Shown: positions 1 to 40,328 of the stretch, piece by piece
How positions within the stretch are numbered: the first letter of the stretch is position 1
Layout: each line of letters starts with the position of its first letter
From: an uncultured Methanosarcinales archaeon
Lineage (GTDB): Archaea; Nanobdellota; Nanobdellia; Woesearchaeales; SM23-78
Reading direction: 5' to 3'
DNA length: 64,000 bases
Assembly (NCBI GenBank): GCA_964354085.1
Contig: CAYGYA010000017.1
Coordinates: 961 to 64,960, forward strand
Translations under genes and position numbers: made by a program
The notes under the pieces: model-generated
What the model saw: the letters and a program-made list of their open reading frames with translations, nothing else
Told to the model about the DNA's origin: nothing
Database searches by the model: none

Positions 1-730
1 GATGTATCTGTTGCTGTTGCATTAAGAGTATAAGTGGTGGTTGTTATGTTTGTGAAATTGGTTGGTTGGTTTATTGTTGTTGTTGGTCCTGTTCTGTCTA
101 TTGTTATGTTTGTGTGTGTGTCGTTTTGTCCTATGTTTCCTAGTGTGTCGTTGGCGTATGCTCTTATTTCATATGTTAGGCTGTCTTGTAGTCCTGTCAG
201 GTTCCATGTGCATATGTATGTTGTTCCTATTCCTGTGTTGTTTCTGCATGCAAGAGTCCATGTTGCTGTGCTGTTTTGTCTGTATAGGAATGTTACTGTA
301 CTTACTGCTGTCATGTCTGTTACTGTTGCATTGAGAGTGTATGTGTTGGTGCTTATATTTGTGAAGTTTGCCGGCTGGTTTAGTGTTGTTGTTGGTCCTG
401 TTCTGTCCAGGGTTATGTTAGTGTGAGTGTCATTATTTCCTAACTTGCCCCATGTATCATTAGCGTATGCTCTTATTTCATAGGTCTTTCCTTCAGGTAA
501 TGCTGATACATCCCAAGTGCATGTGTATGCTGGTCCTCCTGTTTTGTTAGTGCAGATTGTATGCCAACTGTCGCTTGAATTTTGCCTGTACATAAAGGTT
601 AAGGTGTCAACTGCTGTTGTGTCTGTTGCTGTTGCATTTATCAAATATGTACTTGAGCTGATGTTGGCGAAGCTGACTGGGCTTGTCAAAGTTGTTACAG
701 GACCTGTTGTATCAATATGTATTGTATAAT
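1..730 (-). repeat. Intragenic tandem repeat, period ~306-309 bp (~102 aa), two full copies plus one partial copy
   Basis: gttggtcctgttctgtc occurs at 84-100 and 393-409. gcgtatgctcttatttcata occurs at 154-173 and 463-482. Both pairs are offset by exactly 309 bp. A third, more diverged unit carries acaggacctgttgtatc near 699-715. Confidence 0.8.
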
Positions 731-3518
731 TGAACATGTAAGAGCCGCTTAAGGGCACAGTAGCATTATCCCAACAAATTATGTTCCAAAGAATGTTTCC
801 ATCAGGTAAGGTCGCGTTGATTATATTGGCACTGTTGTTTTGCACACTTGTTATGCTTGCGTTTGGAGCCCATGAACCAGTGGCATTAGTGTAGAGAGTG
901 CAATTGTTAAATCCTCTATCCTCACTTACTGTGAAATTAAATGAAATAGTTGATGAGCTTGTTATGTTAGTCATGTTACCAGGATAATTCAGAGCAGTAA
1001 CATTTGGAGGAAGGTTTGAGCTGTTATAATTGACAGTCACATAAATTTGTGTAACCCAGGCTAATCTGCTGGCAGAAGATGAATTTCTCAGGACTCCCCA
1101 TTCCATGTTGTTTATGGTAGTGTAATTCCATGGTTGTCCTGTTGCGGGATTGGTTGTGTAGTTCCATCCAGTAAGGCTATAGGTAGTCCAACTGTTTGAT
1201 AATGCTTGGGTGTTGCCATTATCATAATCAGTTCCTCCTTGTCTGTAGAATATTTCAAGACTGGCTGCTCCTCCTGTGTTTGATTTCATTCCTCGCACAC
1301 TAACAGCGACCCAATTGATAGCTAGAGGATTCTCGCTAAGATTCTGGAATGTGAAAGAATTCCTGCTAGTATCGTCGGGACTAGCTATGTATGTAGTGCC
1401 GTCGTCAGGAGTTGCTTCGGGGTCATCCACTGATTGCCATCGGGTAGCTGCCGGGCTACTGCCTGAGATTGTCCAGCTAACATAATTACCATCTCCGTCA
1501 GGGAGTTCATTTTCGCTTTGAGGGTCAACTGCAAGGTACCAAGGCCTTGCCTCATAGAAAATTCCAGAGTCATAGCTTACAAATGCCGGTCCTAGTTCGT
1601 ATAATTCTGGTGTTATTTTTGGTGGAGTTGCGCTGTAGCTTACAATAGAGTTGTTATTCAGGTTGCTCCATGTTAGATAAGTTTTGTTGTTACCGTTTGT
1701 TATTGTTGCTCCATTGCCATTTACTATTTCAAAACTGTCTGGCAAAACTTCTGTGAAGTTAAAGATTGTTGCGTTTGTGTGTGATATTATTCTTATGCTT
1801 GAGGTAAATGCTCCATTCCATGGGTCTGTTGTTGTTGGAGTGGTTCTAAGAATGTCGAACTCATAGTATGACTTTACTGTGAAGTATGAGTACATTGTAC
1901 TGTTGACATTATTTCCTTGAGCGCTCACTGATAAAGCATAGTTTCCTTCTAATGCTGTTTGGTTATAGCTAGTCTCGTATATCCCTCTACTGGTTTCTAT
2001 TATTTCTCCTCTTGCTGTGGTCAGATTAATAGTGCCATTGTCAGGAGCAGTTATTGTCAAGCTGACATCTGCGTTACTTACAAGGTGTCCCTGGGTGTCG
2101 AGCACCACCATTATTATTTCTGCTGTTTCTCCAGGATAATAAATTGGCTTTTTGGTGTTGATGCTGGCCACTCCTGTTTCTGCATAGCCAGGATCTTCAG
2201 GGCTTATTTCCAATTCATAATCCTGGCCCGGCACCAGGTCCATTATCTTGCTCCAGGTTCCTAGGCACGTCTGGGTTTCAAAGTCCCATTCCTTGCACTT
2301 CCATAATTCTGTGCCCTTTGCAGTTCCTGTGAGTGTTCCATTTGTGAAGTTTAGTGATGATGCATCAATTGCAAAGGCTTTAAGAACATTCTTCTTACCC
2401 CATCCTTTTCCCAAGCCTATATTGTTGAATGGGATTTCATCAATTCCAAGGCTGGTGTTGCGTGAAAGATTAAGCAATAGTTTTTTCAGCACTATTTTCT
2501 TGAATATTCTGTTTTGAGGGATGATTTGTGCAAACTCTGCTTGTTTGATGTCAAGAGTTGCGTTGCTATCATTAACATTAAGGCTTATCTCATTGTTCTG
2601 CTGGTCATAAAGAGTTATAGTAGCGCTTTCAGTAATTCCTTTGCTGCTGACTAATCTGATAACATTATCATTTTTGCCTTGTGGCTGTGGCGTTGGTTCA
2701 CAAGTCTCATTTGTTGAAGGTTGAGGAGTTAATTCTTGGGAGGATGGTTGATACGGTGTGGGTTGAGGAAGAGATTTTTCTAAAACTTGGAATTCATGTC
2801 TTTCTATTTCATTATTATCCTTATCTCTCAGAACTAAATAATGAGTTCCTATTCCTCTTGGTACGAACTTTATTTCTTTTAAGTCGCCCATGTATCTTTG
2901 AACAAAGCCTTGGTATTCATAGTACAATTTGTAATCCTGTTCCTCTGTTAACGACAAGCTAACGCTCGCAATAACAGGCTCTCCAATTGCATAAATTTCT
3001 TTATCAGTGAATATCTTTTTGACTATCTCATTGTTTTGGTTTGTTTCATTAACTTCAATTGTAGTATTTGTTTCATTGCTGGCTTGATTGCTGGTGTTGT
3101 TAATAGCCTCGTTTATTGTTTCATTGATGGTTTCATTTTCTTGTGCTGGTTTTCCTACATAGAAATCCAATGAATCAACAATCACCTGGTTTGTTTTGCT
3201 TGTTAGCTCAACCCTGTATGGTCCTTCTTCTTTTGGGTAGAAGTCAATATTGTTTTTCAGTTCTCCTCCGTACCTATAGAAATTTTGATTAGAGTAAACA
3301 CTCATATCATAATCATTGAGATTGGGTGATGTTATTATGAGAGTTACTTTTTCACCAACATCATAGTAAGGCTTCTCAACAGAGAGGTAAAGGAGCTTCT
3401 GCGGCTGGTCTTCGCTGAGGGTAAGGGTTGCGCTTGCTAGAATAAGGACTATTAAAGCCAGCAGAAGTCCTATGCTCCTCTTTTTTCTATCTGTTTTGTT
3501 TTGGGTTGTTGGTTTCAT
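1..3518 (-). CDS. Giant secreted/cell-surface adhesin-like protein with signal-anchor and Ig-like repeat modules; partial, the C-terminus runs off the left window edge (>1172 aa)
   Basis: ATG at 3518-3516 gives MKPTTQNKTDRKKRSIGLLLALIVLILASATLTL (hydrophobic signal/anchor). I hand-checked the frame at both ends (bases 59-3 read NFTNITTTTYTLNATATDT). It is missing from the ORF track only because no stop lies in the window. Dense N-x-S/T sequons. Three ~100-aa D(R/T)TGP...YEIRAYANDT modules sit at the edge. The + strand ORFs at 34-2962 are V/L/F/C-rich antisense shadows. Confidence 0.85.
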   Translation of the reverse strand, partial: MKPTTQNKTDRKKRSIGLLLALIVLILASATLTLSEDQPQKLLYLSVEKPYYDVGEKVTLIITSPNLNDYDMSVYSNQNFYRYGGELKNNIDFYPKEEGPYRVELTSKTNQVIVDSLDFYVGKPAQENETINETINEAINNTSNQASNETNTTIEVNETNQNNEIVKKIFTDKEIYAIGEPVIASVSLSLTEEQDYKLYYEYQGFVQRYMGDLKEIKFVPRGIGTHYLVLRDKDNNEIERHEFQVLEKSLPQPTPYQPSSQELTPQPSTNETCEPTPQPQGKNDNVIRLVSSKGITESATITLYDQQNNEISLNVNDSNATLDIKQAEFAQIIPQNRIFKKIVLKKLLLNLSRNTSLGIDEIPFNNIGLGKGWGKKNVLKAFAIDASSLNFTNGTLTGTAKGTELWKCKEWDFETQTCLGTWSKIMDLVPGQDYELEISPEDPGYAETGVASINTKKPIYYPGETAEIIMVVLDTQGHLVSNADVSLTITAPDNGTINLTTARGEIIETSRGIYETSYNQTALEGNYALSVSAQGNNVNSTMYSYFTVKSYYEFDILRTTPTTTDPWNGAFTSSIRIISHTNATIFNFTEVLPDSFEIVNGNGATITNGNNKTYLTWSNLNNNSIVSYSATPPKITPELYELGPAFVSYDSGIFYEARPWYLAVDPQSENELPDGDGNYVSWTISGSSPAATRWQSVDDPEATPDDGTTYIASPDDTSRNSFTFQNLSENPLAINWVAVSVRGMKSNTGGAASLEIFYRQGGTDYDNGNTQALSNSWTTYSLTGWNYTTNPATGQPWNYTTINNMEWGVLRNSSSASRLAWVTQIYVTVNYNSSNLPPNVTALNYPGNMTNITSSSTISFNFTVSEDRGFNNCTLYTNATGSWAPNASITSVQNNSANIINATLPDGNILWNIICWDNATVPLSGSYMFNYTIHIDTTGPVTTLTSPVSFANISSSTYLINATATDTTAVDTLTFMYRQNSSDSWHTICTNKTGGPAYTCTWDVSALPEGKTYEIRAYANDTWGKLGNNDTHTNITLDRTGPTTTLNQPANFTNISTNTYTLNATVTDMTAVSTVTFLYRQNSTATWTLACRNNTGIGTTYICTWNLTGLQDSLTYEIRAYANDTLGNIGQNDTHTNITIDRTGPTTTINQPTNFTNITTTTYTLNATATDT

Positions 3519-6491: not shown

Positions 6492-9400
6492 TCACCCGCT
6501 CTCTAATGCTTGTAATAGGTTGTTCTTGTCATGAATATTACTTATCTTTTCTGCTAGCTCATCATTATGCAGCCCCTTCTTAACCCAGTCTGCGAACTTA
6601 TTGTAATCTTCGCCAACATAATGCTTGAAAGTGATTTCATCCATCTGGCTGATAATTTTCTTCAGCTCTCCTATTGTTTTTATCTCTTCGCCATTGTCCA
6701 GCTTGAAGGTATATGTTATGGTTGCTTCTATTCCATTAGTCTCTTTTTCTTCTTTATTCACTTTTTTCTCAAGATCATGTTCTGATTTTTTCTTCTCACT
6801 TTCAACTATTTCTGGTGGCTTAGCCATTTCCTCAAAAGCCTTTGCCTCATTTAACTTCTTTACACTGTCAATATTAAGCTTTGGCAGTGGTTTGTTATCC
6901 CTTCTAAGAGCCAGGAGGTCGAGCATCTCTGGTTTTGTGCGGGCTAATTTAAGGTGGTCTGCTAGTTCCTTGTCCTCAACAGCATTCTGTACCCAGTCTG
7001 AAAAGTCATTCTTGGCTCCACTAACGTGCTTTTCAAAGTCCTCGTCTTTCATGGCTGATATCTCGTCAAAAAGGCTAGCCATGTTTATTACTAGCATACC
7101 GTTCACGAGCTTGAGTATTTTTTCAGGGCTCACATCCTTTCTGAAAAGCGCTGCTCCGCTTACTTCTTTTTTCTCTCCTTCTTCTGATTTTGCAGATTCT
7201 TTTTTCATCTCAGCCTCAAACTGCTCTCTTGCCTTTTTGGCTTTTGTAATTGCTTCTTGCAACTCTTCTTCTGAGACCAGTTTTTTCTCGAGCTTCTCAG
7301 GTTTTTTACCTAGCTTAGCCCAGTTCTTCTCTATTCTAGGGGTTAGGCCATCAAGGTATATCTGTACCATGTTGAAGTTGCCTGTTTTTACCTTGTCAGT
7401 TGCGAGCTTAAGCTCAAGCTTTAGGTCAAACACGTCAAGCCCTTCTTTTTCCAGCTGCTCAAGCTCGAATTGCAATTGGTCTATCTTGTCGTTGTATTCA
7501 TTGTACTTCTCAATTTCTTCATCAGTAAGCCTTTGCACACTGTGCAGCAGCGGCCTGAAGGCGATGAAATAAGGCTTACCTCTATTATAGTGTGGGTTCT
7601 CTACCATCCCGCTACCAACAGTTGCCTTTACTAGAGATCGCAGGACTTCTTCTCCGTATTTTACCCTGATTCTTTCCAGGTCTCCTTCATCTCTTGTCCT
7701 CATCTGGATTTCTGTGTTAATGTTAGCTTTGATAGTTCCGACAAAGTCGCTCAAAACCTGTGATATCAACAGCATGCCAAGTCCCCATTTTCTGAACTCT
7801 CTGCATCCTCTTTCTATCTGGAGGAATCCTTCTCCGCTTCCTCCGAATTTGGGCAGCAGCCTGTGAACCTCATCATAAACAAACAATACTTTGAGAGTTC
7901 TGCTCTCTCCAAAGTTTGCCCTGAAAATCTCCCTGATGCTGTTTGATACAAACATATCCATTTCTTTTGGCTCGAGCTTGTGGCAGGCAAAGATTTGTAT
8001 CTCTCCAGGCTTCACATATTTCTTGATATCAATTATTTCTCTTGGATTTGATATCTGCCTTATATTCCCGCTAAATGCTCTTGCATCAGTTGGCTTCATG
8101 CCAAAGAATGGATAGAGTGCAAACATGGTCTTGTCTGTACATTTCCTAAGCATGCCTGTCCACTGAGCTGTTGGGTCAAACACAATCACAGCCACTCCTT
8201 TCAGAAGCATTTCTTCTACAATAGCCTGGGCAGATACTGTTTTTCCTCCTCCTGTGCTTCCTGCATCTATGGTGTGAGTCATAAAGGCTTCAAGGTTGAA
8301 ATAGGTTTTGTGGTCTGTCTCTGCTATTTTTCCAACAAATATGCTTCTTGGCCCTGGCTTTGGTAGCTCATTAAGCTCTACTTTGAGATGGAATTTCTTT
8401 TTGGATTCTATTCTCTTTTTTATTTGCCAGTAAGCTAATAGCCCTAGAGCAACAAGTATTAGGAAGAGCAAGACATGCCATACTCTTATTGGGCCTACCA
8501 GCAATATCAAGTACCAGGGAGTGCTTATCTTGAACATAGTGCTTGTTCCTGCGCTTAATCCGAGATAGTTGGCAGTGACTCTGAGTATGTAGTCTCCGGG
8601 CTTTGCATCTCTCGGTATTATGGCATTCTTGAGCATAGAGAATGATGTTTTTAGGAATACGTTGGTTTCATAGTCCCACAGTGTTTCTTTTCCCTCAACA
8701 TCCTGGATAGTATAATATAGCTGCACAGGGTATTGTAAGTCTGTTAGCAGGTTTCTCAAATCAGTTTTGAATTTTAAGGTGTCACCCGGATAGGCTATTT
8801 TCTTGTTGAGCTCAAGGTCTATTAGTAATGCTTGCACAGGAAGTTTTTCTTTTGACAGTATCTCAATGGTGATAGGTATGCTTGCATTTATATCTCCGCT
8901 CATGAGCAGAGTACCGTTGTATACCCCGACATCCCCGACTCCGAATATGGTAATAGTCATGTAGTCAGAGCCATGAGGCATGAGCACCATTGATATCTTA
9001 TCCATTTTTATGAGGTTACTGACATTTCCCTCAATTGTGAAATAAACAGTTGCTGGCTTTTCCTTGAAGCTGAAAAGGGTAATCTTTTCCTGAAGGAAGT
9101 TTCCTAGGCGCAGTTTCCTGTTAATCTCAGATATTGAGACCACATAATCTGTTCCCTCAATTTTTTGTGGCCTTTGGATTACTGGAGGCATATCATATTC
9201 TGCTGTCTTGGTTTTTGTCCCTTTCGCATCGACTCCTGTATCAAAGGTGTTTCCTGGTTCATCATAGCCAGGCCCTATGCCTGGATTCGGCGGATTAATA
9301 GGCTGCTTTGCCACCATGACAATATTGTGCATAGTTCCGTTTCCTCTTGTTATGTTCACGTTGCTAATATATGTCTCGTATCCTGTTTTCATTGCATAAA

Positions 9401-10283
9401 TAGTCCAGTTGCCCTCTCTTGCAGTCATATTATAGAAGCCAGTTATATTATTGCTATAATTCACAGCATCAGCAACTTGTACTATCACTGATCCTAATGG
9501 GTTGCCAGAGGTATCAGTAACATTACCATATACATAACCAGCCCAGGGTGCTGAGCCTTCTCCTGCTGGGCAATTATCTGTCGGATCAGCCCAGACATAA
9601 TAATCCTGCCATGTGCTGTAATGGATAGGTAGGATTATTTGATAGTTTAGACGCGAGCCTTGGAATCCATTAATAGGAGTATCAAGTATTTTTGTCACAA
9701 TTACGATATTGCTATTATTATCTTTCAATATGCCTGTGACAAATGCTGTTGAATTGATATTGTTCCATGAGTACGTATACATGGCAGGAGCAGTAATGGT
9801 TTGCTCACCTACATTGAAGGTCGCACTTTGTGTGAATGTGTTAGCTGCTGAAGAGAAATCTGAGCTGCTAATGTTCAGGTATGCATCAATTTCTGCTGTT
9901 GTTGCTGCCCTGAGAGAATTGAAAAGTATTTGGTCTTCTGGCGTCATGCTTGCATATATTTCATGCTCCTTATTCGGCTCAAAGCATTCGAATAGCAGGT
10001 GCTTCTCATTATCAACTTGCGTGAGAGTAACATTCCCTGTCAGGTTAAAGTACCATTCAGTAGTCCAGCCAACCCCCCATGCTGTTCCATAAAGAGCAGA
10101 CCAATGAGTAACGTCATAAACTATTGCTAAGTCTATTTCGCTGACTGTTCCTCCTTCTGTTTCAAGATAAGCTGCATAGCCCAGGAACTGGCTAACAATA
10201 ACCAAGCCTTTTACAGCCAGTATTAGCATTATGATTATCAGAATCCTAAATGTAATCTCCTTTTGTTTTGTTCTTACAACCAT
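6492..10283 (-). CDS. Bitopic membrane protein: ~600-aa extracellular Ig/CarboxypepD_reg-like domain, TM, cytoplasmic HerA/FtsK-superfamily (DUF87-like) P-loop ATPase, coiled coil, duplicated C-terminal helical domain
   Basis: TM1 is FRILIIIMLILAVKGLVIV. TM2 is WHVLLFLILVALGLLAYW. Walker A is DAGSTGGGKT (nt 8238-8261). Walker B is VLFVYDEVH (nt 7861-7890). A HerA-like EFRKWGLGMLLISQ motif is present. The extracellular part contains GNVTDTSGNPLGSVIVQV...GYETY (carboxypeptidase-regulatory-like fold). Confidence 0.75.
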   Translation of the reverse strand: MVVRTKQKEITFRILIIIMLILAVKGLVIVSQFLGYAAYLETEGGTVSEIDLAIVYDVTHWSALYGTAWGVGWTTEWYFNLTGNVTLTQVDNEKHLLFECFEPNKEHEIYASMTPEDQILFNSLRAATTAEIDAYLNISSSDFSSAANTFTQSATFNVGEQTITAPAMYTYSWNNINSTAFVTGILKDNNSNIVIVTKILDTPINGFQGSRLNYQIILPIHYSTWQDYYVWADPTDNCPAGEGSAPWAGYVYGNVTDTSGNPLGSVIVQVADAVNYSNNITGFYNMTAREGNWTIYAMKTGYETYISNVNITRGNGTMHNIVMVAKQPINPPNPGIGPGYDEPGNTFDTGVDAKGTKTKTAEYDMPPVIQRPQKIEGTDYVVSISEINRKLRLGNFLQEKITLFSFKEKPATVYFTIEGNVSNLIKMDKISMVLMPHGSDYMTITIFGVGDVGVYNGTLLMSGDINASIPITIEILSKEKLPVQALLIDLELNKKIAYPGDTLKFKTDLRNLLTDLQYPVQLYYTIQDVEGKETLWDYETNVFLKTSFSMLKNAIIPRDAKPGDYILRVTANYLGLSAGTSTMFKISTPWYLILLVGPIRVWHVLLFLILVALGLLAYWQIKKRIESKKKFHLKVELNELPKPGPRSIFVGKIAETDHKTYFNLEAFMTHTIDAGSTGGGKTVSAQAIVEEMLLKGVAVIVFDPTAQWTGMLRKCTDKTMFALYPFFGMKPTDARAFSGNIRQISNPREIIDIKKYVKPGEIQIFACHKLEPKEMDMFVSNSIREIFRANFGESRTLKVLFVYDEVHRLLPKFGGSGEGFLQIERGCREFRKWGLGMLLISQVLSDFVGTIKANINTEIQMRTRDEGDLERIRVKYGEEVLRSLVKATVGSGMVENPHYNRGKPYFIAFRPLLHSVQRLTDEEIEKYNEYNDKIDQLQFELEQLEKEGLDVFDLKLELKLATDKVKTGNFNMVQIYLDGLTPRIEKNWAKLGKKPEKLEKKLVSEEELQEAITKAKKAREQFEAEMKKESAKSEEGEKKEVSGAALFRKDVSPEKILKLVNGMLVINMASLFDEISAMKDEDFEKHVSGAKNDFSDWVQNAVEDKELADHLKLARTKPEMLDLLALRRDNKPLPKLNIDSVKKLNEAKAFEEMAKPPEIVESEKKKSEHDLEKKVNKEEKETNGIEATITYTFKLDNGEEIKTIGELKKIISQMDEITFKHYVGEDYNKFADWVKKGLHNDELAEKISNIHDKNNLLQALESG

Positions 10284-10322
10284 TTGTTTTTCATCTCATC
10301 AATAATATTCTCTTATATTTCA

Positions 10323-13300
10323 TTAAATCAAATTCTTTGTATTCTCAATTGCGATTTGTATCTTGTTGCCAAGGGCTACGAGGGTCGGATGAATCAGTTC
10401 CTTGGTATCATCATCAAGCTGAGTGTATGCTGCTTCAATCCTCTTGTATTCTTCAAGAGAAGCAGACAGCTGGCCGTTGTTAAGCAAACCCTGGATATTA
10501 TTCACCATTACTTTCAGCTCAGCAATATTGCCCTGGGCTTGCATTGCATCGCAATATTCCTTCACCCTCACTGCTGTTTGGGAAATATTTTCATATACAT
10601 CATTCTTTGCAAGAGTTGATAGCTCGCTGTAAGCATCTTTTGCTTCATTATAAAGATCAATGGCTTTCTCATGATCGCCTCCGTCAAGATTGTCATTAAT
10701 CTCATTGAGTATGACGCTGATATAGTGAAGGCTTTTCTTGCCATAAATTCTGTAAGCAAGATACCTGGCTGTGTTGATGCCGTCGTATTTAATTCCTGCA
10801 AACACCAAGCCGCCTAGCAGTATTATTATTACTGGTATGAACATTATTCCTTTGCCTGATGGCATTTTCAGGCCCTTAATTGAGAAGCCAGTTATTTTCT
10901 GTTTAGCCTCAATTGACGCCGGGTCTACAAGCACCACAGTTTTTATTTTCTTCAGCAGTTCCAAGTCTTGATTAGCTTCAAAATAATAAGTTATGGTGGT
11001 GTCGCCTTGTAAGCCAAACTTGATGATTGGGTCTTGCATCACCACTTCATATTTCTGTGAGCTCATGATGTTATCTGCTTTCTCAGCAACATCTTTCGGT
11101 ATTATTTCCATGATGAATGCGCCTTCTGTGATGTTATAGGTTTTTATCTCCCTAAGAATAATGCTTGCATCGCTTTGAGTCCCATCTCTGTAAGTAACCC
11201 TGGCAGTTTTTACCTTGCTGGAGATTAGGACTTCTTGCTGCAAATCATTAATGAATTTCAGGAGCTCTTTCTTGCTAATGCTTAGCGAAACATTGTTTAT
11301 CTCAAGGTACTGGTCGAGCAACGCCTCTATCTCATCTGGTTTTATATAGTCAACAAATGCATCTTTGTTAAGCAGCTCAATACTTATAGGTGTTTTTTGA
11401 TAGGCTTGTTCTGCGTTCAGCACCATTTGTTCCCCTTCTGCCTGCTTATCAGCATCTGTTAGGTCTGTCCTGAAATTAAGAGCATCAAGATCTCTTATGG
11501 TGTTCTTGAAAACAGATATGCTTTCATCTATAATGCTTGAAATCCCAAGAGCTTCTGCCGCTTCTTTCTCATCTTTTGGCAGGGCATTAATGTTATCAAG
11601 GATTTGCTGGAATTCCTTAACCCAGTCGTCATATGTCTTGAAATTCCCGCTACTTGCCTGTGGCTCAGTTGTCTGGGGGGTTGGTAATGCAGCAAGGCTT
11701 CCTACATTGAACACCCAGCTAGTACTCATTCCACTTTTTCCAATCTTATCAACGCATTCAACTTTCCACCAGTAGCTTTTGTTCTCAAGCTCTATAACCC
11801 CGAATGCATGCTCAGCACTGTCACTTACCTCTATACTTCCTAGGTAGGCAAAGAAGCCATCATTTTTCTCATTGATATAGAAGCTGCAGTTAAGTGTCCT
11901 GTTGTATTCTGCTTTGAAAGCCAGCTCTGTTGTTGTGCCTGTTATTCCTGAATTATTTCCTGGCCTTATGAGAGTGATTATTGGCTCCTGGTTAATTACT
12001 GGCTCAAGGAACAGAGTAATGGTTTCGTCTTTTGTAATGTCTAAATCACTGTGGTACATTGTATAATTTTCTTTTAGGACGAATATTCCCTTTTGCCCTG
12101 GTGTTAGGTAATATCCTATTTCTCCATTTGCATCTGTTTCTTTTTCTTCATCATCAATATCAACAGTTGCTCGTGAAATAACTCCTTTTGTTACTGAGTT
12201 TTTTACAACTATTTTTACATAATAAGTATTGTCAACAGTTATGGTTATGCTGCTGTTCTTGGTGTTGTTATAAGCATCTTTAACTGAGACTGTATTGACA
12301 TAGTTCCCTGCTGTCGTATATGTTATGTTGGTTTTTTTGCCATTCTTTACTGAGCCATCGCTTAGATGCCAGGTGTAATTAAGAGTGCCAACTCCTCCTT
12401 TTGCATCTGCTTTAAGAATGACTGGAACATTCCTTCTCTGGTCATCATCAGTATCAATATCTATCTTGATATTGTTTTTTATTTCATAATTCAGTGCTTT
12501 TGCTTCTGTGAAGCCGCTGTAGTTGAAGAAAGCCTCAAGCAGATATTTGCCCTCGTAATTAGTGAACATAAGATATTCCTGGAATGGATAATTCATTACG
12601 TTCTGGGCATTGACAGGAACTTTGCATTCTACAAATCCTGGCTTGTCAGGGCAGACTTCTACCCTTATGCTTGTTCCCTGCGGAGCACTTATGGTCATCA
12701 GGATGTTATCTCCAATATTGTATTCTATTCCCGGGATGGTTATGTTAAATGTTGGCTGTGCTGGCAGCGCTTCAATCCTGAATGTCCTTGTTTCGCTTGT
12801 CTCTGAGTTATTGACATAATCATAGCAGGTTATTCCCCAAGTGTAATTTCCTGTTTCTAATGTGCTTAGCGTGGTTGTTGCAGGCTCGCTGTTTTTGGCT
12901 GTGATGCTTTTGTTCACGTTGTTGTTCAGTGTGATGTCGCAGCTGATGTTCTCTGCAATGTTGTCAAGCACAACAAAGTTGATATCTACACTAGATGCAT
13001 TTATCTGAGTCTTATTAATAGGGAAGAAGAGCACTATGGTTGGCTTTAAACTGTCAATTATGATGGTTCTTTCTTCGCTGCTCTCAGAATTGTTGTTATA
13101 ATAGCATTCAATTCTCCAGCTGTGGTTTCCTGTTGTTAGGTTTTCTGTGAATGCATTGAATCCCGGGTTGGTTATGTTGGTGTTTGTTGCTTTTGTCTCT
13201 GAGTCTATGATGAGCTTGCAATTAGTAACAGTTAGGTTGTCAAGGCCGACATAGTAATCAAAGGTTACGATTTTGTTTGAGTAGGTGTTGTTTGCTGGGG

Positions 13301-13409
13301 TCACAAGGTCAATTGTTGCTGAGGCTAATGATGTACAGAATAGCGCAAAGAGTGCTGCAACTAGCAACAAGCTAATTCTCTTTTTTGCTATTTTGTTTTG
13401 CTCACTCAT
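10323..13409 (-). CDS. Large type-I membrane surface protein with Ig-like modules, PKD domain, CarboxypepD_reg-like domain, C-terminal TM and helical cytoplasmic tail
   Basis: Signal peptide RISLLLVAALFALFCTSLASA. Three modules end in G(N/H)(Y/S)WxIxC. PKD-like GTLNYTWHLSDGSVKNGKKTNITYTTAGNYVNTVSVKDAYNN. TM is IMFIPVIIILLGGLVFAGI, followed by a ~150-aa helical tail. The ATG at 13409 overlaps the upstream stop (ATGAGTGA). Confidence 0.8.
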   Translation of the reverse strand: MSEQNKIAKKRISLLLVAALFALFCTSLASATIDLVTPANNTYSNKIVTFDYYVGLDNLTVTNCKLIIDSETKATNTNITNPGFNAFTENLTTGNHSWRIECYYNNNSESSEERTIIIDSLKPTIVLFFPINKTQINASSVDINFVVLDNIAENISCDITLNNNVNKSITAKNSEPATTTLSTLETGNYTWGITCYDYVNNSETSETRTFRIEALPAQPTFNITIPGIEYNIGDNILMTISAPQGTSIRVEVCPDKPGFVECKVPVNAQNVMNYPFQEYLMFTNYEGKYLLEAFFNYSGFTEAKALNYEIKNNIKIDIDTDDDQRRNVPVILKADAKGGVGTLNYTWHLSDGSVKNGKKTNITYTTAGNYVNTVSVKDAYNNTKNSSITITVDNTYYVKIVVKNSVTKGVISRATVDIDDEEKETDANGEIGYYLTPGQKGIFVLKENYTMYHSDLDITKDETITLFLEPVINQEPIITLIRPGNNSGITGTTTELAFKAEYNRTLNCSFYINEKNDGFFAYLGSIEVSDSAEHAFGVIELENKSYWWKVECVDKIGKSGMSTSWVFNVGSLAALPTPQTTEPQASSGNFKTYDDWVKEFQQILDNINALPKDEKEAAEALGISSIIDESISVFKNTIRDLDALNFRTDLTDADKQAEGEQMVLNAEQAYQKTPISIELLNKDAFVDYIKPDEIEALLDQYLEINNVSLSISKKELLKFINDLQQEVLISSKVKTARVTYRDGTQSDASIILREIKTYNITEGAFIMEIIPKDVAEKADNIMSSQKYEVVMQDPIIKFGLQGDTTITYYFEANQDLELLKKIKTVVLVDPASIEAKQKITGFSIKGLKMPSGKGIMFIPVIIILLGGLVFAGIKYDGINTARYLAYRIYGKKSLHYISVILNEINDNLDGGDHEKAIDLYNEAKDAYSELSTLAKNDVYENISQTAVRVKEYCDAMQAQGNIAELKVMVNNIQGLLNNGQLSASLEEYKRIEAAYTQLDDDTKELIHPTLVALGNKIQIAIENTKNLI

Positions 13410-18783: not shown

Positions 18784-19260
18784 ATGAACAAAACACTGTT
18801 GCTGGTAATATCAATAATAATCTGCCTTGCTGCAGGCTTCATTGGCTCATTATTTACCACAACAGGGCCTGACAGCTGGTACTCAAACATCAATAAGCCG
18901 AGCTTTAATCCTCCTGGATGGATATTTGGTCCTGTCTGGACTTTATTATACATTCTAATGGGCATTTCGCTTTACCTTGTCTGGCAAAAAGGCATAGCAG
19001 ATCCTCATGTCAAGATTGCCTTGCTCATATTCGCAGTTCAGTTAGTCCTGAACATCCTGTGGTCAATACTGTTCTTTGGCATGCAATCACCTATGCTTGC
19101 ACTGATAGAAATAGTGCTACTATGGGTTTTCATCCTATGGACAATAACGAATTTCTACCCAATATCAAGAACAGCAGCTTACCTGCTAATACCATACATC
19201 GTGTGGGTTAGTTTTGCTGCAATACTTAACTTCTCGATATTCATGCTGAATAAAGCATGA
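18784..19260 (+). CDS. tspO: TspO/MBR tryptophan-rich sensory protein (5 TM)
   Basis: WYSNINKPSFNPPGWIFGPVWTLLYILMGIS and a W-rich multi-TM profile. Confidence 0.85.
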   Translation: MNKTLLLVISIIICLAAGFIGSLFTTTGPDSWYSNINKPSFNPPGWIFGPVWTLLYILMGISLYLVWQKGIADPHVKIALLIFAVQLVLNILWSILFFGMQSPMLALIEIVLLWVFILWTITNFYPISRTAAYLLIPYIVWVSFAAILNFSIFMLNKA

Positions 19261-19333
19261 TACTTATAATAATCTACTTTTCTAAGAAAAAACCATTACA
19301 TTAATAAATAATACTCGACTTTTCTAATGTGCT

Positions 19334-19643
19334 GGACCAGTGGCCTAGTTTGGATACAATAAAATGCCAAAAAGGGCGACAGCCTCCTATCCTAGCGCTG
19401 ATGAAGATTATTTCGCTAGTATCAAATGATATGTGAGAATTAACCGAAGCAATGGGCGAGAGCTGTAAGTCGGGAGTTCGAACAGATTTTTAGGAAAAAA
19501 TCTGGTAACAGAAATGTTCAAAACATTTCTGGAGCAGAAAAGCATTGCTTTTCTGCTAAAAAGACTTAAGGAGGATATTTGCTTCGCAAAATCCTCCGAA
19601 TTGCCAAAAAATCCTAAAACCTACGAAAGTCTCCCCTGGTCCG
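19334..19643 (+). tRNA. tRNA-Arg(CCT) interrupted by three insertions: D-loop ~17 nt, canonical 37/38 ~71 nt, T-loop ~147 nt
   Basis: Acceptor GGACCAG (19334-40) pairs with CTGGTCC (19636-42), discriminator G. D stem GCCT/GGGC with loop AGTTTGGATA. Anticodon stem ACAGC (19379-83) pairs with GCTGT (19462-66). Anticodon loop is CTCCTA|A. Variable loop AAGTC. T stem GGGAG (19472-76) pairs with CTCCC (19631-35), loop TTCGAA. Exons sum to 75 nt. Confidence 0.85.
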
Positions 19644-19669
19644 CTTTATAATTGCGAGCATTGGCTAAC

Positions 19670-20857
19670 ATGAAACTTAATAAAAAGGCACTTAAAATAG
19701 CAGCATCAATTATTCTAGGAGTAACGCTATTTATTGTTGTTGTCTTAAAATACCCTTTTAAGCAGGTTTTTTCAACCTTCAGTCACATAACGCCTTTGCT
19801 TGTTATTGTTTACCTTTGCGTTTCTTTCTCAATTATGTTGCTCTTTGCTATCAGGTGGCGTTTTGTCCTTAAGACATTTGGCCATAACCTTTCTTTTTCA
19901 GAAGCATTCAGTTTCAGAGTTATTGAATACGGGATAAGCTATCTTACTCCTTCTGGAAAGGCTGGCGGTGAGCCAGTAAGAGCTGCCTTGCTTACAAGGA
20001 AGGGAATTAAATTCAAGGAAGGCTTGGCTGCTGTGGTCGCTGATAAGAGCATTGAAATGTCTGTTTCTGTATTGTTCTTTATTTTTGGCTTGCTTACCTT
20101 GGCTATTGATTATGCCTTGCCCAGAGGTCTCAATATACTACTCATAGTGCTTTCCTTATTTCTTCTCTACCTGCTCTGGAAGTTTTATTCCAGGATTCTG
20201 CAGGGTAAGCCTGTTTTTACAGCCCTTTACCAGTTCTTGCGCCTGCATAAGGTTAAGTTCTTGCTCAAATACCAGCAGGTAATTGCTGATTTTGAAAAGC
20301 CGATTATCAAGTTCTATAATCAGGAGAAAAAAGCTTTTTTTGTTGCACTGTCCATTAGCCTACTGAGCCTTTGCCTCTCAATTGTTGAGTATAAGATTTT
20401 AATGCTTATGCTTGGGATAAATGCTCCTCTTAGCATAGTGTTCATAGTGTTCTCTGTGGTGGGAATAGCTTTCCTTGTGCCCGTGCCAATGGGCCTTGGG
20501 AGCCTTGAAGCTTTTCAAGCCTCTCTTTTCTCTGTGCTTGGCCTTGGCTCAGCAGCAGGTGTTGGCTTGGCAATGATTACCAGGGCTAGGGATTTGTTAT
20601 GGGTCTTGGTAGGAGTTATCCTCTCACTTTACATAGGAGCCTTTAAGAGGGTTGTTAAAGAAGCTTATGACAGCAAATATTCAAATCCGATTATGAAGAC
20701 CATGATTTTCAGGAATGGGAGGGCAGAGCCTTTGACAATAAAAATGTTCAGGCATCCTGCTCATGAAAAGAGATTTTTAAGCCTGAAAGAAGTGAAGAAC
20801 AGAGGCAAGCTGCTTTTTAATAAGGGCAAGAGTAATAAGAAAGGCGGGTTAGAGTAG
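19670..20857 (+). CDS. UPF0104 / lysylphosphatidylglycerol-synthase-TM-like (flippase-like) polytopic membrane protein
   Basis: About 8 TM segments. AIRWRFVLKTFGHNLSFSEAFSFRVIEYGISYLTPSGKAGGEPVRA matches the family signature. The ATG at 19670 is preferred over the track TTG at 19652, which abuts the tRNA. Confidence 0.7.
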   Translation: MKLNKKALKIAASIILGVTLFIVVVLKYPFKQVFSTFSHITPLLVIVYLCVSFSIMLLFAIRWRFVLKTFGHNLSFSEAFSFRVIEYGISYLTPSGKAGGEPVRAALLTRKGIKFKEGLAAVVADKSIEMSVSVLFFIFGLLTLAIDYALPRGLNILLIVLSLFLLYLLWKFYSRILQGKPVFTALYQFLRLHKVKFLLKYQQVIADFEKPIIKFYNQEKKAFFVALSISLLSLCLSIVEYKILMLMLGINAPLSIVFIVFSVVGIAFLVPVPMGLGSLEAFQASLFSVLGLGSAAGVGLAMITRARDLLWVLVGVILSLYIGAFKRVVKEAYDSKYSNPIMKTMIFRNGRAEPLTIKMFRHPAHEKRFLSLKEVKNRGKLLFNKGKSNKKGGLE

Positions 20858-37302: not shown

Positions 37303-39138
37303 TTACTTTCTTGGCTTTCTCTTTATCCTAAGCTCTTTCTTGTGTTTTTTTCTAGTTATCATAATGCTAAGAATAACGCCGATAATTATGCCCATTACTA
37401 ACGCAGAAACAAAGAATATCACGAGATAGGCATTACTCCTGATAGCCCAAACCCAGGAAACATCAAACCCTTTTTTAGGGAAATAGATCTCGATATTGCC
37501 TAGCTCAAGGGCATATTCTGAGAATATGAGGCTTGAAAATGCATCACCGTTCTCATTGAGGGAATTAGCATACTCATAATAGCTGTAGCCCATTATTGGG
37601 AAGAATCCTCTGCTCTCTTCCTTGACAATAAGCTTCTTAATAGCCTTGAGCTTTTCATCTGCAAGCTCATCAACATGCTCTGAGCCTATTGAAATGCTGG
37701 ATAATAAAAGATTGGACTCTGCCTTTGCAAAGCTGGCTTTGAATAAGCACATTTTATAATTTTCCTTGGCTGCAAAAGCATAGGCCTGGTTAATAGTTTC
37801 CTTTGCGCTCTGTAGTTCAATAGGAATATATACGCCTGCATAATTAATCCTCTCATCTGCTTCTGAGAGCTTCTTATAGCATGCCTGCTTTAAGTATTCC
37901 TTGTTAAGCTGGATTTTTGCTCCTTTCATATTAAAGAAATTAGACCAATACACCCCGCTGTAATAGCGCTCAATTGCATAGGCAAGTTCATCACTTGAGA
38001 TGTTTTCCTTCCCTATAGAGAGGCTTTCTTCTGCTTCCAAAAGGCGTTCCTTAACAGTAATATAAGTCTCCAGCCCTTGGAGCGTTGTTAGGTTAATGCT
38101 CTCCAGGCTTTTGTCAAAATCCTCAACAGCTTTTTTAGTGACCTCATAAATCTCATCTATCTTTTCAGGGCTTTCATTATTAAGCTCTTTTAGATAGGCT
38201 TTTCTCAGCAATACACCAAAGCTAAAACAGTAGCTGGCAGCAGAATAATACTCCTGGGTTTCGAGGGTTTTATTGATGTTAGCCATGAACATATCTGACT
38301 TGTTAATATCGCTCTCATCAGCTAATTTTATTCTCTTGCTCAAATCAAGTGCCCGGCTGCACAAGGATTTTGAAACATTTTTCATAATATCAGTGTAATC
38401 AGATGGGATGCTTATGTTGCCATCAGTCTGTTTCATGGGAGCATCTGTAAAATAAGTCAGAGCTTCCTCCACATTGCTGACCTTAATCACTTCAATACTC
38501 AGGTTAGCTTCTTCAAGTGTTGGCTCTTTATCTATGACATTAACCCTGCTTATGTTAATGTTAGTCTCATTAGTAATATTATTATAGGATAAGCTGAGAT
38601 TAAGCCTGGTCTTATTCACTTCTTCAATATTAAAGGATAATATAGGGATAAGAACTCGCTCAAATCCTGCTTTCTGGGCAGCTGTTGCTTTTTTTACAAT
38701 CCCGCCGACAGGGCCAATGCTTCCGCCAGAATTAATAGTTCCAGTCATCACAGTATCATTTCTTAGCTTAAGATTCCTAAGAGCAGCAATAGTAAGAATA
38801 GTCAATGAGCCGCTAGCACTAGGTCCTCCGACAATTGCAGAATCAGCTCTTATGGTATAGAAGAAATCATAATGCGAGCAGTCCATGTCAAGGTAGTCGC
38901 AGGCAATCTCATTTGCATAACGCGTGCTTATCTGAGTGTCAATTTTGGTTAAGGGAAATGAATCAAGGAAAATCCTTCCAGTGCCGTATTTAACCTGAAG
39001 ATAAGCATCAGCAGTACCCCCAAAAGTTTCATTACCCATCTCTCCAACAGTCAAGAGAATCATATGATAGCTCTTGGCGCTGACCAGCACAAGACTAAGT
39101 AATGCCATTAAAACCAATAGGAGCGCTTGTTTTTTCAT
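37303..39138 (-). CDS. Secreted, C-terminally anchored protein with Lon-protease-like (S16) Ser-Lys domain plus large helical domain
   Basis: Signal LLLVLMALLSLVLVSA. GGPSASGSLTILTIAAL (catalytic Ser context) and GPVGGIVKKATAAQKAGFERVLIP (catalytic Lys context). C-terminal TM YLVIFFVSALVMGIIIGVILSIMI. Confidence 0.7.
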   Translation of the reverse strand: MKKQALLLVLMALLSLVLVSAKSYHMILLTVGEMGNETFGGTADAYLQVKYGTGRIFLDSFPLTKIDTQISTRYANEIACDYLDMDCSHYDFFYTIRADSAIVGGPSASGSLTILTIAALRNLKLRNDTVMTGTINSGGSIGPVGGIVKKATAAQKAGFERVLIPILSFNIEEVNKTRLNLSLSYNNITNETNINISRVNVIDKEPTLEEANLSIEVIKVSNVEEALTYFTDAPMKQTDGNISIPSDYTDIMKNVSKSLCSRALDLSKRIKLADESDINKSDMFMANINKTLETQEYYSAASYCFSFGVLLRKAYLKELNNESPEKIDEIYEVTKKAVEDFDKSLESINLTTLQGLETYITVKERLLEAEESLSIGKENISSDELAYAIERYYSGVYWSNFFNMKGAKIQLNKEYLKQACYKKLSEADERINYAGVYIPIELQSAKETINQAYAFAAKENYKMCLFKASFAKAESNLLLSSISIGSEHVDELADEKLKAIKKLIVKEESRGFFPIMGYSYYEYANSLNENGDAFSSLIFSEYALELGNIEIYFPKKGFDVSWVWAIRSNAYLVIFFVSALVMGIIIGVILSIMITRKKHKKELRIKRKPRK

Positions 39139-39719
39139 CAGTGCTTATACCTCCCTCTCAGCTCAACCTGTTTCAACCTCTGCATAATCGCATCATGCTT
39201 ATCAGCTTTCTTATAGCCTTTCAGAAATTCTTTCAGAGCTTCATCATAAACCTTGAAATGCTTGCTGTCAAGAGCCTGCTTGAACAAATGAATATCAACA
39301 GCCTTGTCCTCAACCTTGTCAGAATGAAAGCTAAGGCCGAAATCAATGAACACAATCTCGCCTTGAGGGTTAACAATCATGTTGCTAGTTGTCAAGTCAC
39401 CATGGATTATGTTATGATTATGCAGTTCTGCAACCAACTCTCCAACTCTTTTTGCAAGCTCAGGCTTCTTGTCAAGTACTTCCCTCAGCTTTTCACCAGG
39501 AATTTTCTCCATGACAATCTTTTGCTTGTCATCAGAATGAATAAGCCTAGGATGGGGGATAGATACTTTCTCAAGCAGATTAGCCTCTCTCCTGGTCCTC
39601 TGCCTTCTAAGCTCCTCGTCAAGCTCCTTAATGCGATAGCTCTTCTTGAGCCTATCCTTTATTATAGTGTTCTTGTCCTCATAAATTACAGATTCTGCGC
39701 CTCTGGCTATTTCCCTCAT
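39138..39719 (-). CDS. bud32: Bud32/PRPK atypical kinase (KEOPS subunit)
   Basis: RGAESVIYEDKN, NIIHGDLTTSNMIV, FIDFGLS. The ATG at 39719 gives the normal ~190-aa size. The stop overlaps the Lon-like gene start (TGATG). Confidence 0.85.
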   Translation of the reverse strand: MREIARGAESVIYEDKNTIIKDRLKKSYRIKELDEELRRQRTRREANLLEKVSIPHPRLIHSDDKQKIVMEKIPGEKLREVLDKKPELAKRVGELVAELHNHNIIHGDLTTSNMIVNPQGEIVFIDFGLSFHSDKVEDKAVDIHLFKQALDSKHFKVYDEALKEFLKGYKKADKHDAIMQRLKQVELRGRYKH

Positions 39720-39778
39720 GGAAAATAGAAAAAAATGCGTGTTTTTAATTGTTTTGAAAATTTTAGATGTAAACAAAT

Positions 39779-40318
39779 CTACTTAAATGCTAATACATAC
39801 CAATCAAATAATTTTTGGTTCTTGTGCTCTGGTGCGCAAACGAGTTTTATGGTGTTATCCTCTTCCTTTTTGATGACAGAATTATTAAGGGAATTATCAA
39901 CTCTTACCAAATATCCTCCTACCCTCACCACTTTTAGGTTCTCAAAAAATTCCTGCCAAGTTTCCTCCCCCATGATTACTAGAAGATCAAGTCCTTCAGC
40001 TTCTTCTGGCAGGTTTGGGTAGTAAGAAACTCTGTGTCTAATATTGTTCAGAGGGTTTAACCCTGCTTTAGGAAAACGATTCCACTCAGTACCTCTTCCT
40101 GTGATTAAAGCTGTTGATGGGCTTTTCTTTATCAGCCTAGAATATGTCTCGTCAAGATGGTCTTCTTTAAGAAAAGAGTAAAGAGGCGCTATTATCAAGC
40201 CTGGCTTTTGCTCTGCAGCCTTCATTATCTTTTCTTCTACTCCAGGATTTTTGTAATACCTTTTAACCCTGTGCTTGATGATTGCGACAGGTAATTCTTT
40301 TGGTTGTTCTTCTATCAT
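39779..40318 (-). CDS. Conserved hypothetical protein, tandem paralogue A
   Basis: Shares VAII..., KPxLIIxPxY, LNPL and RxGGYLxxxDN blocks, in the same order, with the adjacent 181-aa protein. Confidence 0.5.
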   Translation of the reverse strand: MIEEQPKELPVAIIKHRVKRYYKNPGVEEKIMKAAEQKPGLIIAPLYSFLKEDHLDETYSRLIKKSPSTALITGRGTEWNRFPKAGLNPLNNIRHRVSYYPNLPEEAEGLDLLVIMGEETWQEFFENLKVVRVGGYLVRVDNSLNNSVIKKEEDNTIKLVCAPEHKNQKLFDWYVLAFK

Positions 40319-40328
40319 TATTCTTCTC

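Follow-up and report, generated by a model that had tools for sequence, protein, structure and literature searches.

A tRNA-Arg(CCU) gene very probably spliced from a three-intron precursor in a Woesearchaeota-like DPANN archaeon

The 64-kb stretch of archaeal DNA analysed here (64,000 nt of contig CAYGYA010000017.1, in the following the window) contains a 310-nt locus, at positions 19334-19643 of the plus strand, which very probably is a functional tRNA-Arg(CCU) gene of a Woesearchaeota-like DPANN archaeon, spliced from a three-intron precursor by the endonuclease EndA and the RNA ligase RtcB. An earlier note on this DNA had described a tRNA-Arg(CCT) gene with 75 nt of exons, split by insertions in the D-loop, at 37/38 and in the T-loop. 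Direct reading of the sequence agrees with that description, and both the gene and the three intron positions, the last of them at 59/60, held in the analysis. The introns make up 76% of the 310 bases. Judged by sequence comparison, the locus is a real, conserved arginine tRNA gene.

Anatomy and conservation of the gene

Joining positions 19334-19356, 19374-19389, 19461-19482 and 19630-19643 gives a product of 75 nt, GGACCAGTGGCCTAGTTTGGATAGGGCGACAGCCTCCTAAGCTGTAAGTCGGGAGTTCGAATCTCCCCTGGTCCG, which ARAGORN calls as tRNA-Arg(cct) with stems of 7/4/5/5 bp and the T-loop TTCGAAT. When introns 1 and 3 only are excised, the intron mode of ARAGORN returns tRNA-Arg(cct) with i(40,71), which is exactly the second insertion, and excision of just one non-canonical insertion is insufficient for a call. 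Once all introns are removed the anticodon and T loops have 7 nt each and the anticodon is properly placed. The universal nucleotides U8, A14, G18-G19, A21, U33, U54-U55-C56 and A58 can be read directly in the 75-nt product (as T8, A14, GG, A21, T33 and TTCGAAT).

Exon 1 (19334-19356, plus strand like all parts of the gene) comprises the acceptor 5' strand GGACCAG, U8 and G9, the D-stem 5' strand GCCT and the D-loop AGTTTGGATA, and is followed by the 17-nt intron 1 in the D-loop (19357-19373). The D-stem 3' strand GGGC, G26, the anticodon-stem 5' strand ACAGC and the loop CTCCTA with the anticodon CCT form exon 2 (19374-19389), after which comes the 71-nt intron 2 at the canonical position 37/38 (19390-19460). 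Exon 3 (19461-19482) holds A38, the anticodon-stem 3' strand GCTGT, the variable loop AAGTC, the T-stem 5' strand GGGAG and the T-loop TTCGAA (54-59), and precedes the 147-nt intron 3 at 59/60 (19483-19629). Exon 4 (19630-19643) consists of T60, the T-stem 3' strand CTCCC, the acceptor 3' strand CTGGTCC and the discriminator G; CCA is not encoded after it, and a T-rich stretch comes next. A cut in the anticodon loop after position 36 would give G37, and one after position 35 would make the anticodon CCA; both were rejected, as A37 suits an AGG decoder and ARAGORN puts the intron at 37/38. The predicted exon-exon junctions after splicing are TTTGGATAGGGCG, CCTCCTAAGCTGT and GTTCGAATCTCCC, centred on TTTGGATA/GGGCG, CCTCCTA/AGCTGT and GTTCGAA/TCTCCC, and the predicted circle junctions are GGGCGAG/TCCTAGCG for intron 2 and CTACGAAAG/CAGATTTTT for intron 3.

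The native locus is not called by ARAGORN with intron mode on or off, nor is it matched by the Rfam tRNA model at gathering scores or at E<=1 over the whole window. The same model does detect single-intron tRNAs in a related contig (L011, 49.8 and 41 bits), and the miss is therefore attributed to the three introns. The earlier statement that this is the only tRNA in the 64 kb was borne out, since ARAGORN, Rfam (gathering score and E<=1) and two home-made scans, one for a T-arm plus acceptor and one for a 5'-half signature, found no other in the window. An extra signature match at 42343-42520 on the minus strand was rejected as a second tRNA, being inside an open reading frame (ORF) and having an AT-only acceptor.

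The window has about 40% G+C and encodes the archaeal proteins RtcB, CDC48, TruD/Pus7, GatD/GatE, RNase P Rpp21 and ThrRS, and the closest homologues of the gene downstream of the tRNA are annotated Woesearchaeota or Nanoarchaeota. Judging by this gene content, the host is a Woesearchaeota-like DPANN archaeon. The intergenic regions of relatives were retrieved via the conserved gene order TruD(-)/TspO(+)/tRNA/LPG_synthase_TM(+)/PHP/GatE, and a metagenome scan with exon 1 added further loci (designated here by L numbers). The samples JGI 3300032164 and ENA ERZ27247688 are among those with loci nearly identical to that of the window. Twelve distinct versions of the gene, the window included, all from Woesearchaeota-like metagenome contigs, were compared. 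The lengths of their introns, in the order D-loop/37-38/59-60, are 17/71/147 nt in the window, 16/71/92 nt in L004, 17/71/92 nt in L010, 17/71/89 nt in L016, 17/70/87 nt in L015, 17/72/88 nt in L019, 25/14/139 nt in L014, 41/36/140 nt in L006, 43/26/37 nt in L021, 31/37/0 nt in L008, 0/39/0 nt in L017 and 0/37/0 nt in L018. All three introns are thus present in nine of the 12 versions; the T-loop intron is missing in one, and two have the 37/38 intron alone.

Despite these differing intron sets, the exon junctions are identical in position across the 12 versions. Exon identity to the window is 83-100%, compared with 23-88% for introns 1 and 3 and 17-100% for intron 2. Of the 21 stem pairs, six differ among the seven distinct mature sequences, four of these having changed on both strands (including A-T to G-C in the T stem and A-T to T-A in the acceptor), and none is broken. 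The two single-intron orthologues, L017 and L018, are called natively by ARAGORN. Furthermore, all four cloverleaf stems are present, at pair probabilities of 0.93-1.00, when the 310-nt precursor is folded without constraint to its minimum free energy (MFE), and most orthologue precursors likewise form all four. Shared exons with compensatory changes in 12 orthologues, together with the precursor fold, are far more than chance would be expected to produce, and argue for a working gene.

A predicted promoter (19287-19309, plus strand) consists of an A-rich stretch, AAAAAACC, resembling a transcription factor B recognition element, and a TATA-like box, ATTAATAAAT, at 19300-19309, ending 24 nt ahead of the mature 5' end. 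In each of the 12 orthologues ATTAATAAA(T) is found at -34 to -25 relative to the mature 5' end, although identity over the other positions of the upstream 70 nt is as low as 56-64% in the remoter ones. By analogy with archaeal promoter architecture, the box would act as a promoter element. The codon AGG, which this tRNA would read, is the commonest arginine codon in 25 window genes (243 of 533, 46%).

Further searches for relatives yielded little. A scan of GTDB genomes with exon 3 gave three loci, none the same tRNA, two of them being Woesearchaeota-type tRNA-Arg(TCT) genes with other introns. Scans of viral contigs with exon 2 and with the C-box-plus-guide pattern of intron 2 (see below) gave just coding-sequence or phage-tRNA matches, and an exact-protein look-up of the window TspO found no record. 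Alignment of L019/L020 (2100-2500) to window 19264-19650 shows at least 93% identity over the tRNA gene and the 70 nt preceding it, whereas the downstream LPG_synthase_TM protein is just about 64% identical and TspO is replaced by an unrelated 138-aa ORF. From this comparison it appears that the tRNA locus is either far more conserved than its neighbours or exchanged between lineages.

Splice junctions and proposed processing

The canonical motif, whose geometry was applied to the junctions, has an outer helix, a 4-bp helix and a bulge N N/N on the 5' strand, and the 4-bp helix, a bulge N N/N and the outer helix on the 3' strand; its register was checked on the perfect 11-nt intron of a Woesearchaeota tRNA-Arg(TCT) gene (L003). 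The earlier note had made its reading depend on whether such bulge-helix-bulge structures can be drawn. According to the predicted folds they can, at all three junctions, in near-canonical form at 59/60 and in relaxed form in the D-loop and at 37/38.

At the T-loop junction T54-G57 (TTCG, 19477-19480) pairs with CGAA at 19624-19627 with p=0.89 in the unconstrained precursor fold. The 3' bulge A,G/T60 abuts the T stem, the 5' bulge is A58,A59/C, and the 5' end of the intron pairs with the distal strand 19613-19622, with one spare nucleotide on the 3' strand. This arrangement is the unconstrained MFE fold of the window T-arm substrate and costs at most 2.3 kcal/mol in seven other orthologues. 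Both the window and L006 T-arms fold into a 3-nt bulge, 4 bp and a 3-nt bulge, in L006 as 5 bp, 3-nt bulge, 4 bp, 3-nt bulge (one spare nucleotide opposite) and an 11-bp inner helix. All nine genes that carry this intron have a conserved intron 3' end, CGAA, CGGA or CGAG plus AG, whose pairing with TTCG is kept (U-A to U.G). The predicted fold thus has two 3-nt bulges separated by a 4-bp helix, with the expected cut after the second bulge nucleotide, and the 59/60 junction can be regarded as a near-canonical bulge-helix-bulge.

In the D-loop, TTGG (19350-19353) pairs with CCAA (19367-19370) with p=0.95 in the unconstrained ensemble, followed by A,A/A and the D stem. This geometry places the cuts at 19355/56 and 19372/73. 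Of the insertion coordinates first given, those of the second and third stand, while the D-loop boundary is ambiguous by one base, because removal of 19357-19373 and of 19356-19372 yields the same product; the helix geometry favours the latter, one base to the left, corresponding to position 20a/21. The D-loop intron measures 16-43 nt in the orthologues that have it and is absent from L017 and L018; in L006 and L014 both its register and its inner hairpin differ.

At 37/38 the 3' end of the intron, GGGCGAG, pairs with C32, C34 and C35 across a U33.C mismatch. The intron ends in GG(C/T)GAG in ten of the 12 orthologues, L014 (GGCGAT) being off at the last base only, the bulge A,G/A38 is conserved, and L017 and L018, with their single intron, use this motif too. 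In the predicted folds this is nevertheless the weakest junction.

In archaea tRNA exons are joined by the 3'-phosphate RNA ligase RtcB. The RtcB gene, which the earlier note had placed at 60726, was confirmed by a full-length Pfam match (60726-62177, plus strand; PF01139, E=2.9e-173). As for the endonuclease, an alpha4-type EndA with an L3 loop has been found in multiple DPANN lineages, including a Woesearchaeota genome (PMC5829648). In the same study Kaneta et al. predicted the tRNA genes of four newly sequenced DPANN genomes, one of them from Woesearchaeota, and in the lineages possessing this EndA disrupted tRNA genes were more numerous and the predicted tRNA sets incomplete (PMC5829648).

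We propose that the gene has a TATA-box promoter of its own, from which a precursor of about 310 nt is made. This would fold as a cloverleaf with three extra arms, one at 20a/21 in the D-loop, one at 37/38 in the anticodon loop and one at 59/60 in the T-loop. At the foot of every arm nucleotides of the tRNA loop would pair with the 3' end of the intron, forming a short helix flanked by the unpaired nucleotides that bear the splice sites. EndA would then cut two nucleotides into each bulge and RtcB, encoded 41 kb away, would ligate the four exons into the 75-nt tRNA. CCA would be added after splicing, as it is not encoded, and the introns would be released, probably as circles.

Intron contents and alternative explanations

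Two features that the earlier note had not remarked are a box C/D-like element in the canonical intron and the modular, hypervariable hairpins of the T-loop intron. The former is a candidate small RNA of 54 nt inside intron 2 (19397-19450, plus strand), enclosed by a terminal stem GCT/AGC. From 5' to 3' it has a C box ATGAAGA (19401-19407), a D' guide TTATTTCGCTAG as a 12-nt spacer (19408-19419), a degenerate C'-like ATGATAT (19426-19432), a D guide as an 11-12-nt spacer (19433-19443) and a D box CCGA (19444-19447), so that the layout of the RNA would be GCU / (G) / AUGAAGA / UUAUUUCGCUAG / UAUC-AA / AUGAUAU / GUGAGAAUUAA / CCGA / AGC. The C and D boxes each deviate at one position, from RUGAUGA and CUGA, and can form tandem G.A pairs and a G-C pair next to the 3-bp terminal stem GCU/AGC.

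Intron 2 is identical at 71 of 71 positions in the window, L004, L010 and L016, yet L016 is just 59% identical upstream and 48% in intron 3. Three variants of this intron exist, which differ in the linkers and the D guide but not in the boxes and the D' guide. The element is present in six of the 12 orthologues and missing from L006, L008, L014, L017, L018 and L021, which marks it as derived within a single sub-clade. When both strands of the window were scanned with a relaxed C/D descriptor, devised once the element had been seen, it was the sole match.

Among the closest known RNAs is Pyrococcus sR39 (RF01122), which has the C-box variant AUGAAGA as well. The window element matches its full model with 19.4 bits (E=0.014 in a 501-nt search) and the L019 variant with 17.7 bits, both far under the gathering score of 50, and the 3' half of the window element (C', D guide) is unaligned. 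The D' guides are nearly identical, UUAUUUCGCUAG in the window and cAAUUUCGCUAG in sR39, and both pair with 23S UAGCGAAAU(U). Measured against the 23S rRNA of E. coli, which is not the lineage's own, the D' guide forms 9 contiguous pairs with UAGCGAAAU, as do 13 of 300 shuffled guides, and the sR39 consensus guide forms 10 pairs at the same site; the fifth-nucleotide rule would place the target at the position corresponding to E. coli C1934. Guides aimed at the host tRNA, as in the tRNA-Trp model, were considered and rejected, no convincing complementarity being found by eye. Literature searches for the target of sR39 and for fibrillarin in DPANN gave no usable result. sR39 is not known to be intron-borne.

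That intron 2 carries a box C/D-type guide RNA is, on this sequence evidence, only a little short of an even chance. The fuller proposal, that the intron of one sub-clade has been co-opted to carry a trans-acting, sR39-related guide directing 2'-O-methylation of the C1934 equivalent in 23S rRNA, is put forward tentatively. It is also quite possible that intron 2 is conserved for another reason, as a kink-turn binding L7Ae or another protein that aids splicing or folding, or as a regulatory RNA, and that the likeness to sR39 is due to chance. C/D-family matches of 20-25 bits arise as noise in the coding DNA of relatives. The internal k-loop is not apparent either, as the D' position reads UAUC without GA, the C' AUGAUAU, and the region is a plain 5-bp hairpin; the intron as a whole folds unremarkably (z = -0.9). 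For the D guide, E. coli rRNA offers no match, and Pfam finds no fibrillarin, Nop5 or L7Ae among the approximately 50 window ORFs scanned. Against a chance likeness stand the order of boxes, spacers and 3-bp stem within 54 nt, the only such arrangement in the window by the post hoc descriptor, the agreement of both the D' guide and the unusual C box with an RNA directed at the same universally conserved 23S site, and the fact that the changes between variants spare precisely the boxes and the D' guide.

The MFE of intron 3 is -51.8 kcal/mol compared with -23.6 +/- 3.7 for shuffled sequences (z = -7.7), and the orthologous T-loop introns have z values from -3.7 to -6.4. In the predicted fold it contains hairpins at 19483-19504, 19509-19531, 19534-19556 and 19570-19597 (plus strand). 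The second is the hairpin of L015, L016 and L019 except for a compensatory T:A to A:T change, and L004 and the more distant L014 have the hairpin GTGGGACATTCCTTCGGAAGTCCCA in common, a mosaic distribution. These comparisons suggest that the intron is a fast-evolving stack of self-contained hairpins that are rapidly gained, duplicated and lost, and that they are tolerated because they fold on themselves, leaving the base of the arm intact and tRNA folding undisturbed. A group I intron was rejected, the 147 nt consisting of simple hairpins without any such Rfam match (E<=10 over 19250-19750, E<=1 over the window). Group I introns have a catalytic core P3-P9 and are usually longer than 200 nt. 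Likewise, a riboswitch reading found just noise-level Rfam matches (SAM-II and microRNA families, E 0.7-10).

The extreme stability of intron 3, its compensated hairpin and the mosaic sharing between L004 and L014 could also be accommodated if the intron were a stable, probably circular functional non-coding RNA, or the remnant of a small mobile element inserting into tRNA introns. We consider this unlikely. Identity is 23-56% even where the exons and intron 2 are identical, the length ranges from 37 to 147 nt, and three orthologues have no T-loop intron. A search for copies of the hairpins in the window and about 120 kb of related loci gave only matches of A-runs, which lends no support to a repeated mobile element, and Rfam matches are lacking as mentioned.

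Several observations weigh against the functional, spliced three-intron gene itself. At intron 1 the 3' site faces three unpaired nucleotides and the 5' site falls within a hairpin loop of 13 nt (bulge-helix-loop type), and the predicted D-loop bulge of L006 is on the wrong strand. The 4-bp helix at 37/38 has the U33.C/U mismatch in 11 of the 12 orthologues, and constraining the fold there to a bulge-helix-bulge costs 5-10 kcal/mol relative to an alternative that extends the anticodon stem by pairing GAG with C32-C34. No match to the EndA families PF01974 and PF02778 was found among the approximately 50 window ORFs scanned, several small ones of which match nothing; rescanning these at E<=1 for EndA, fibrillarin, Nop5 and L7Ae returned nothing relevant. 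Finally, the 64 kb covered leave room for an intact tRNA-Arg(CCT) elsewhere in the genome. Together with the blindness of standard finders and the thermodynamically poor 37/38 junction, this would suit a decaying pseudogene, named by the earlier note, with AGG decoded instead by, for instance, tRNA-Arg(UCU) or an intact CCU gene elsewhere, but we regard that as highly improbable, contradicted as it is by exons identical in six lineages with differing introns and flanks, compensatory stem changes without a broken pair in distant lineages, a promoter box kept in 12 of 12, splice-site motifs retained while intron bodies are replaced, and AGG as the commonest arginine codon. A functional tRNA-Arg(CCU) gene spliced from a three-intron precursor is the reading we retain.

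Related systems, other features and significance

The kind of object described here is known, and the gene is an extreme case of it, with the maximum intron number, in a different superphylum and with one over-length intron. Multiple-intron tRNAs are prominent in Thermoproteales and have at most three introns (PMC4033280). As in the Thermoproteales genes (Sugahara et al. 2007/2008; PMC4033280, PMC4090602), there are no more than three introns, one at 37/38 and the others in the D and T arms. Relaxed bulge-helix-bulge splice sites, which in Thermoproteales are processed by EndA and RtcB, would be a further likeness. In contrast, the host belongs to DPANN/Woesearchaeota and not to Crenarchaeota, and no spread of intron sequence between tRNA genes was seen in the window and about 120 kb of related loci.

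Archaeal tRNA introns measure 11-129 nt with medians of 12-25 nt, an exception being the 65-nt intron of tRNA-Trp, which nests a box C/D RNA (PMC4090602). The introns of 71 and 147 nt are far longer than these medians, and the latter, which the earlier note had called long, exceeds the quoted maximum of 129 nt in that 2014 review (PMC4090602). The introns of 139 and 140 nt at 59/60 in L014 and L006 do so as well. The 147-nt T-loop intron would be the longest archaeal tRNA intron for which we found a figure.

Within the same superphylum, disrupted tRNA genes with non-canonical and multiple introns have been described together with the epsilon2 EndA of ARMAN-2 (PMC3239211, PMC3488258) and the alpha4 EndA with L3 (PMC5829648), and the authors of the latter note that the incomplete tRNA sets of DPANN imply undetected disrupted genes. 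A 2026 preprint on 208 complete Nanobdellota genomes reports, with tRNAscan-SE, order-specific 'missing' tRNAs and 26-54 tRNAs per genome (bioRxiv 10.64898/2026.05.13.725050). Neither PMC5829648 nor this preprint mentions the present gene, its 59/60 intron or the nested small RNA.

The candidate C/D-type RNA of about 55 nt in the 37/38 intron, which splicing would release, resembles the box C/D RNA in the tRNA-Trp intron of Euryarchaeota, as in Haloferax volcanii and with Pyrococcus sR50 (Clouet d'Orval 2001 and Singh 2004, as cited in PMC7994747 and PMC4090602). It differs in that the host is tRNA-Arg(CCU), the better-conserved guide matches 23S rRNA, the C'/D' boxes are degenerate and six of the 12 orthologues carry it. 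It would accordingly be a putative C/D-like RNA nested in a tRNA other than Trp.

Further tRNA genes with introns or insertions occur in related contigs. L003 (2500-2680, minus strand as fetched; Woesearchaeota metagenome-assembled genome, JAZDMC010000075.1) has a tRNA-Arg(TCT) with a perfect 11-nt canonical intron and, about 60 nt downstream, a second copy of the last 19 nt of the gene (GGGAATCTTCCCTGGCGCG). Elements that integrate into tRNA genes usually leave such a repeated tRNA 3' end, in direct orientation, as a scar. L011 (4454-4836; JGI contig Ga0209211_10025420) has two convergent single-intron genes, both found by Rfam: a tRNA-Arg(TCT) with a canonical intron of about 50 nt and, by direct reading, a tRNA-Cys(GCA) with one of about 53 nt. 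The Arg(TCT) intron starts with UUGAUAU and ends with CCGAA, with a long AU hairpin between; these box-like motifs recur in window intron 2 as its C'-like and D boxes, and may hint at a kink-turn at the intron base in this group. In L002 (1302-1399; CAZTBE010000001.1, a metagenome-assembled genome labelled Methanosarcinales) a tRNA-Arg(TCT), mis-called tRNA-Ala by ARAGORN, carries about 21 additional nt in its D-loop, inserted where intron 1 lies in the window gene. As its exons are nearly identical to those of the Woesearchaeota gene in L003, the Methanosarcinales label looks doubtful.

Elsewhere in the window, two adjacent ORFs of 179 and 181 aa (39779-40874, minus strand) without a Pfam match even at E<=1 adjoin a Bud32/RIO-like kinase (39138-39776); they have the size of EndA subunits, but nothing supports that identity. 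Positions 1-3500 have unusually low coding density, with ORFs of 60-130 aa only, gaps of about 550-580 nt, a strong negative AT skew and no Rfam match. On the minus strand at 6492-13409, two adjacent ORFs of 1263 and 1028 aa with PKD and carboxypeptidase-regulatory-like domains and a HerA/DUF87 ATPase region may, from their domains, be a cell-surface or secretion module typical of DPANN episymbionts. The ORF at 57456-58010 (plus strand; lysine-rich, 184 aa, no Pfam match) contains two tandem copies of a 123-nt unit with 79% match (57681-57920).

The gene is a concrete, comparatively validated case of the unidentified disrupted tRNA genes suspected in DPANN (PMC5829648). It extends the length range of the 2014 review and adds a three-intron tRNA from beyond Thermoproteales. 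The 'missing' tRNAs of Nanobdellota could plausibly be explained by genes of this sort, which are 76% intron and escape both ARAGORN and Rfam, and the exon and splice-site rules derived here could seed searches for more. The orthologue series, with one, two or three introns and T-loop introns of 37-147 nt, is a natural experiment on intron gain and growth, and makes the substrate range of the DPANN EndA (alpha4 with L3 loop) directly testable. If the C/D reading of intron 2 is true, tRNA splicing by EndA and RtcB would double as a biogenesis route for an rRNA-modification guide, a link between tRNA splicing and RNA modification so far known only for the self-targeting tRNA-Trp intron. The nested RNA would then be distinct from that intron, and an archaeal counterpart of the intron-encoded snoRNAs (small nucleolar RNAs) of eukaryotes.

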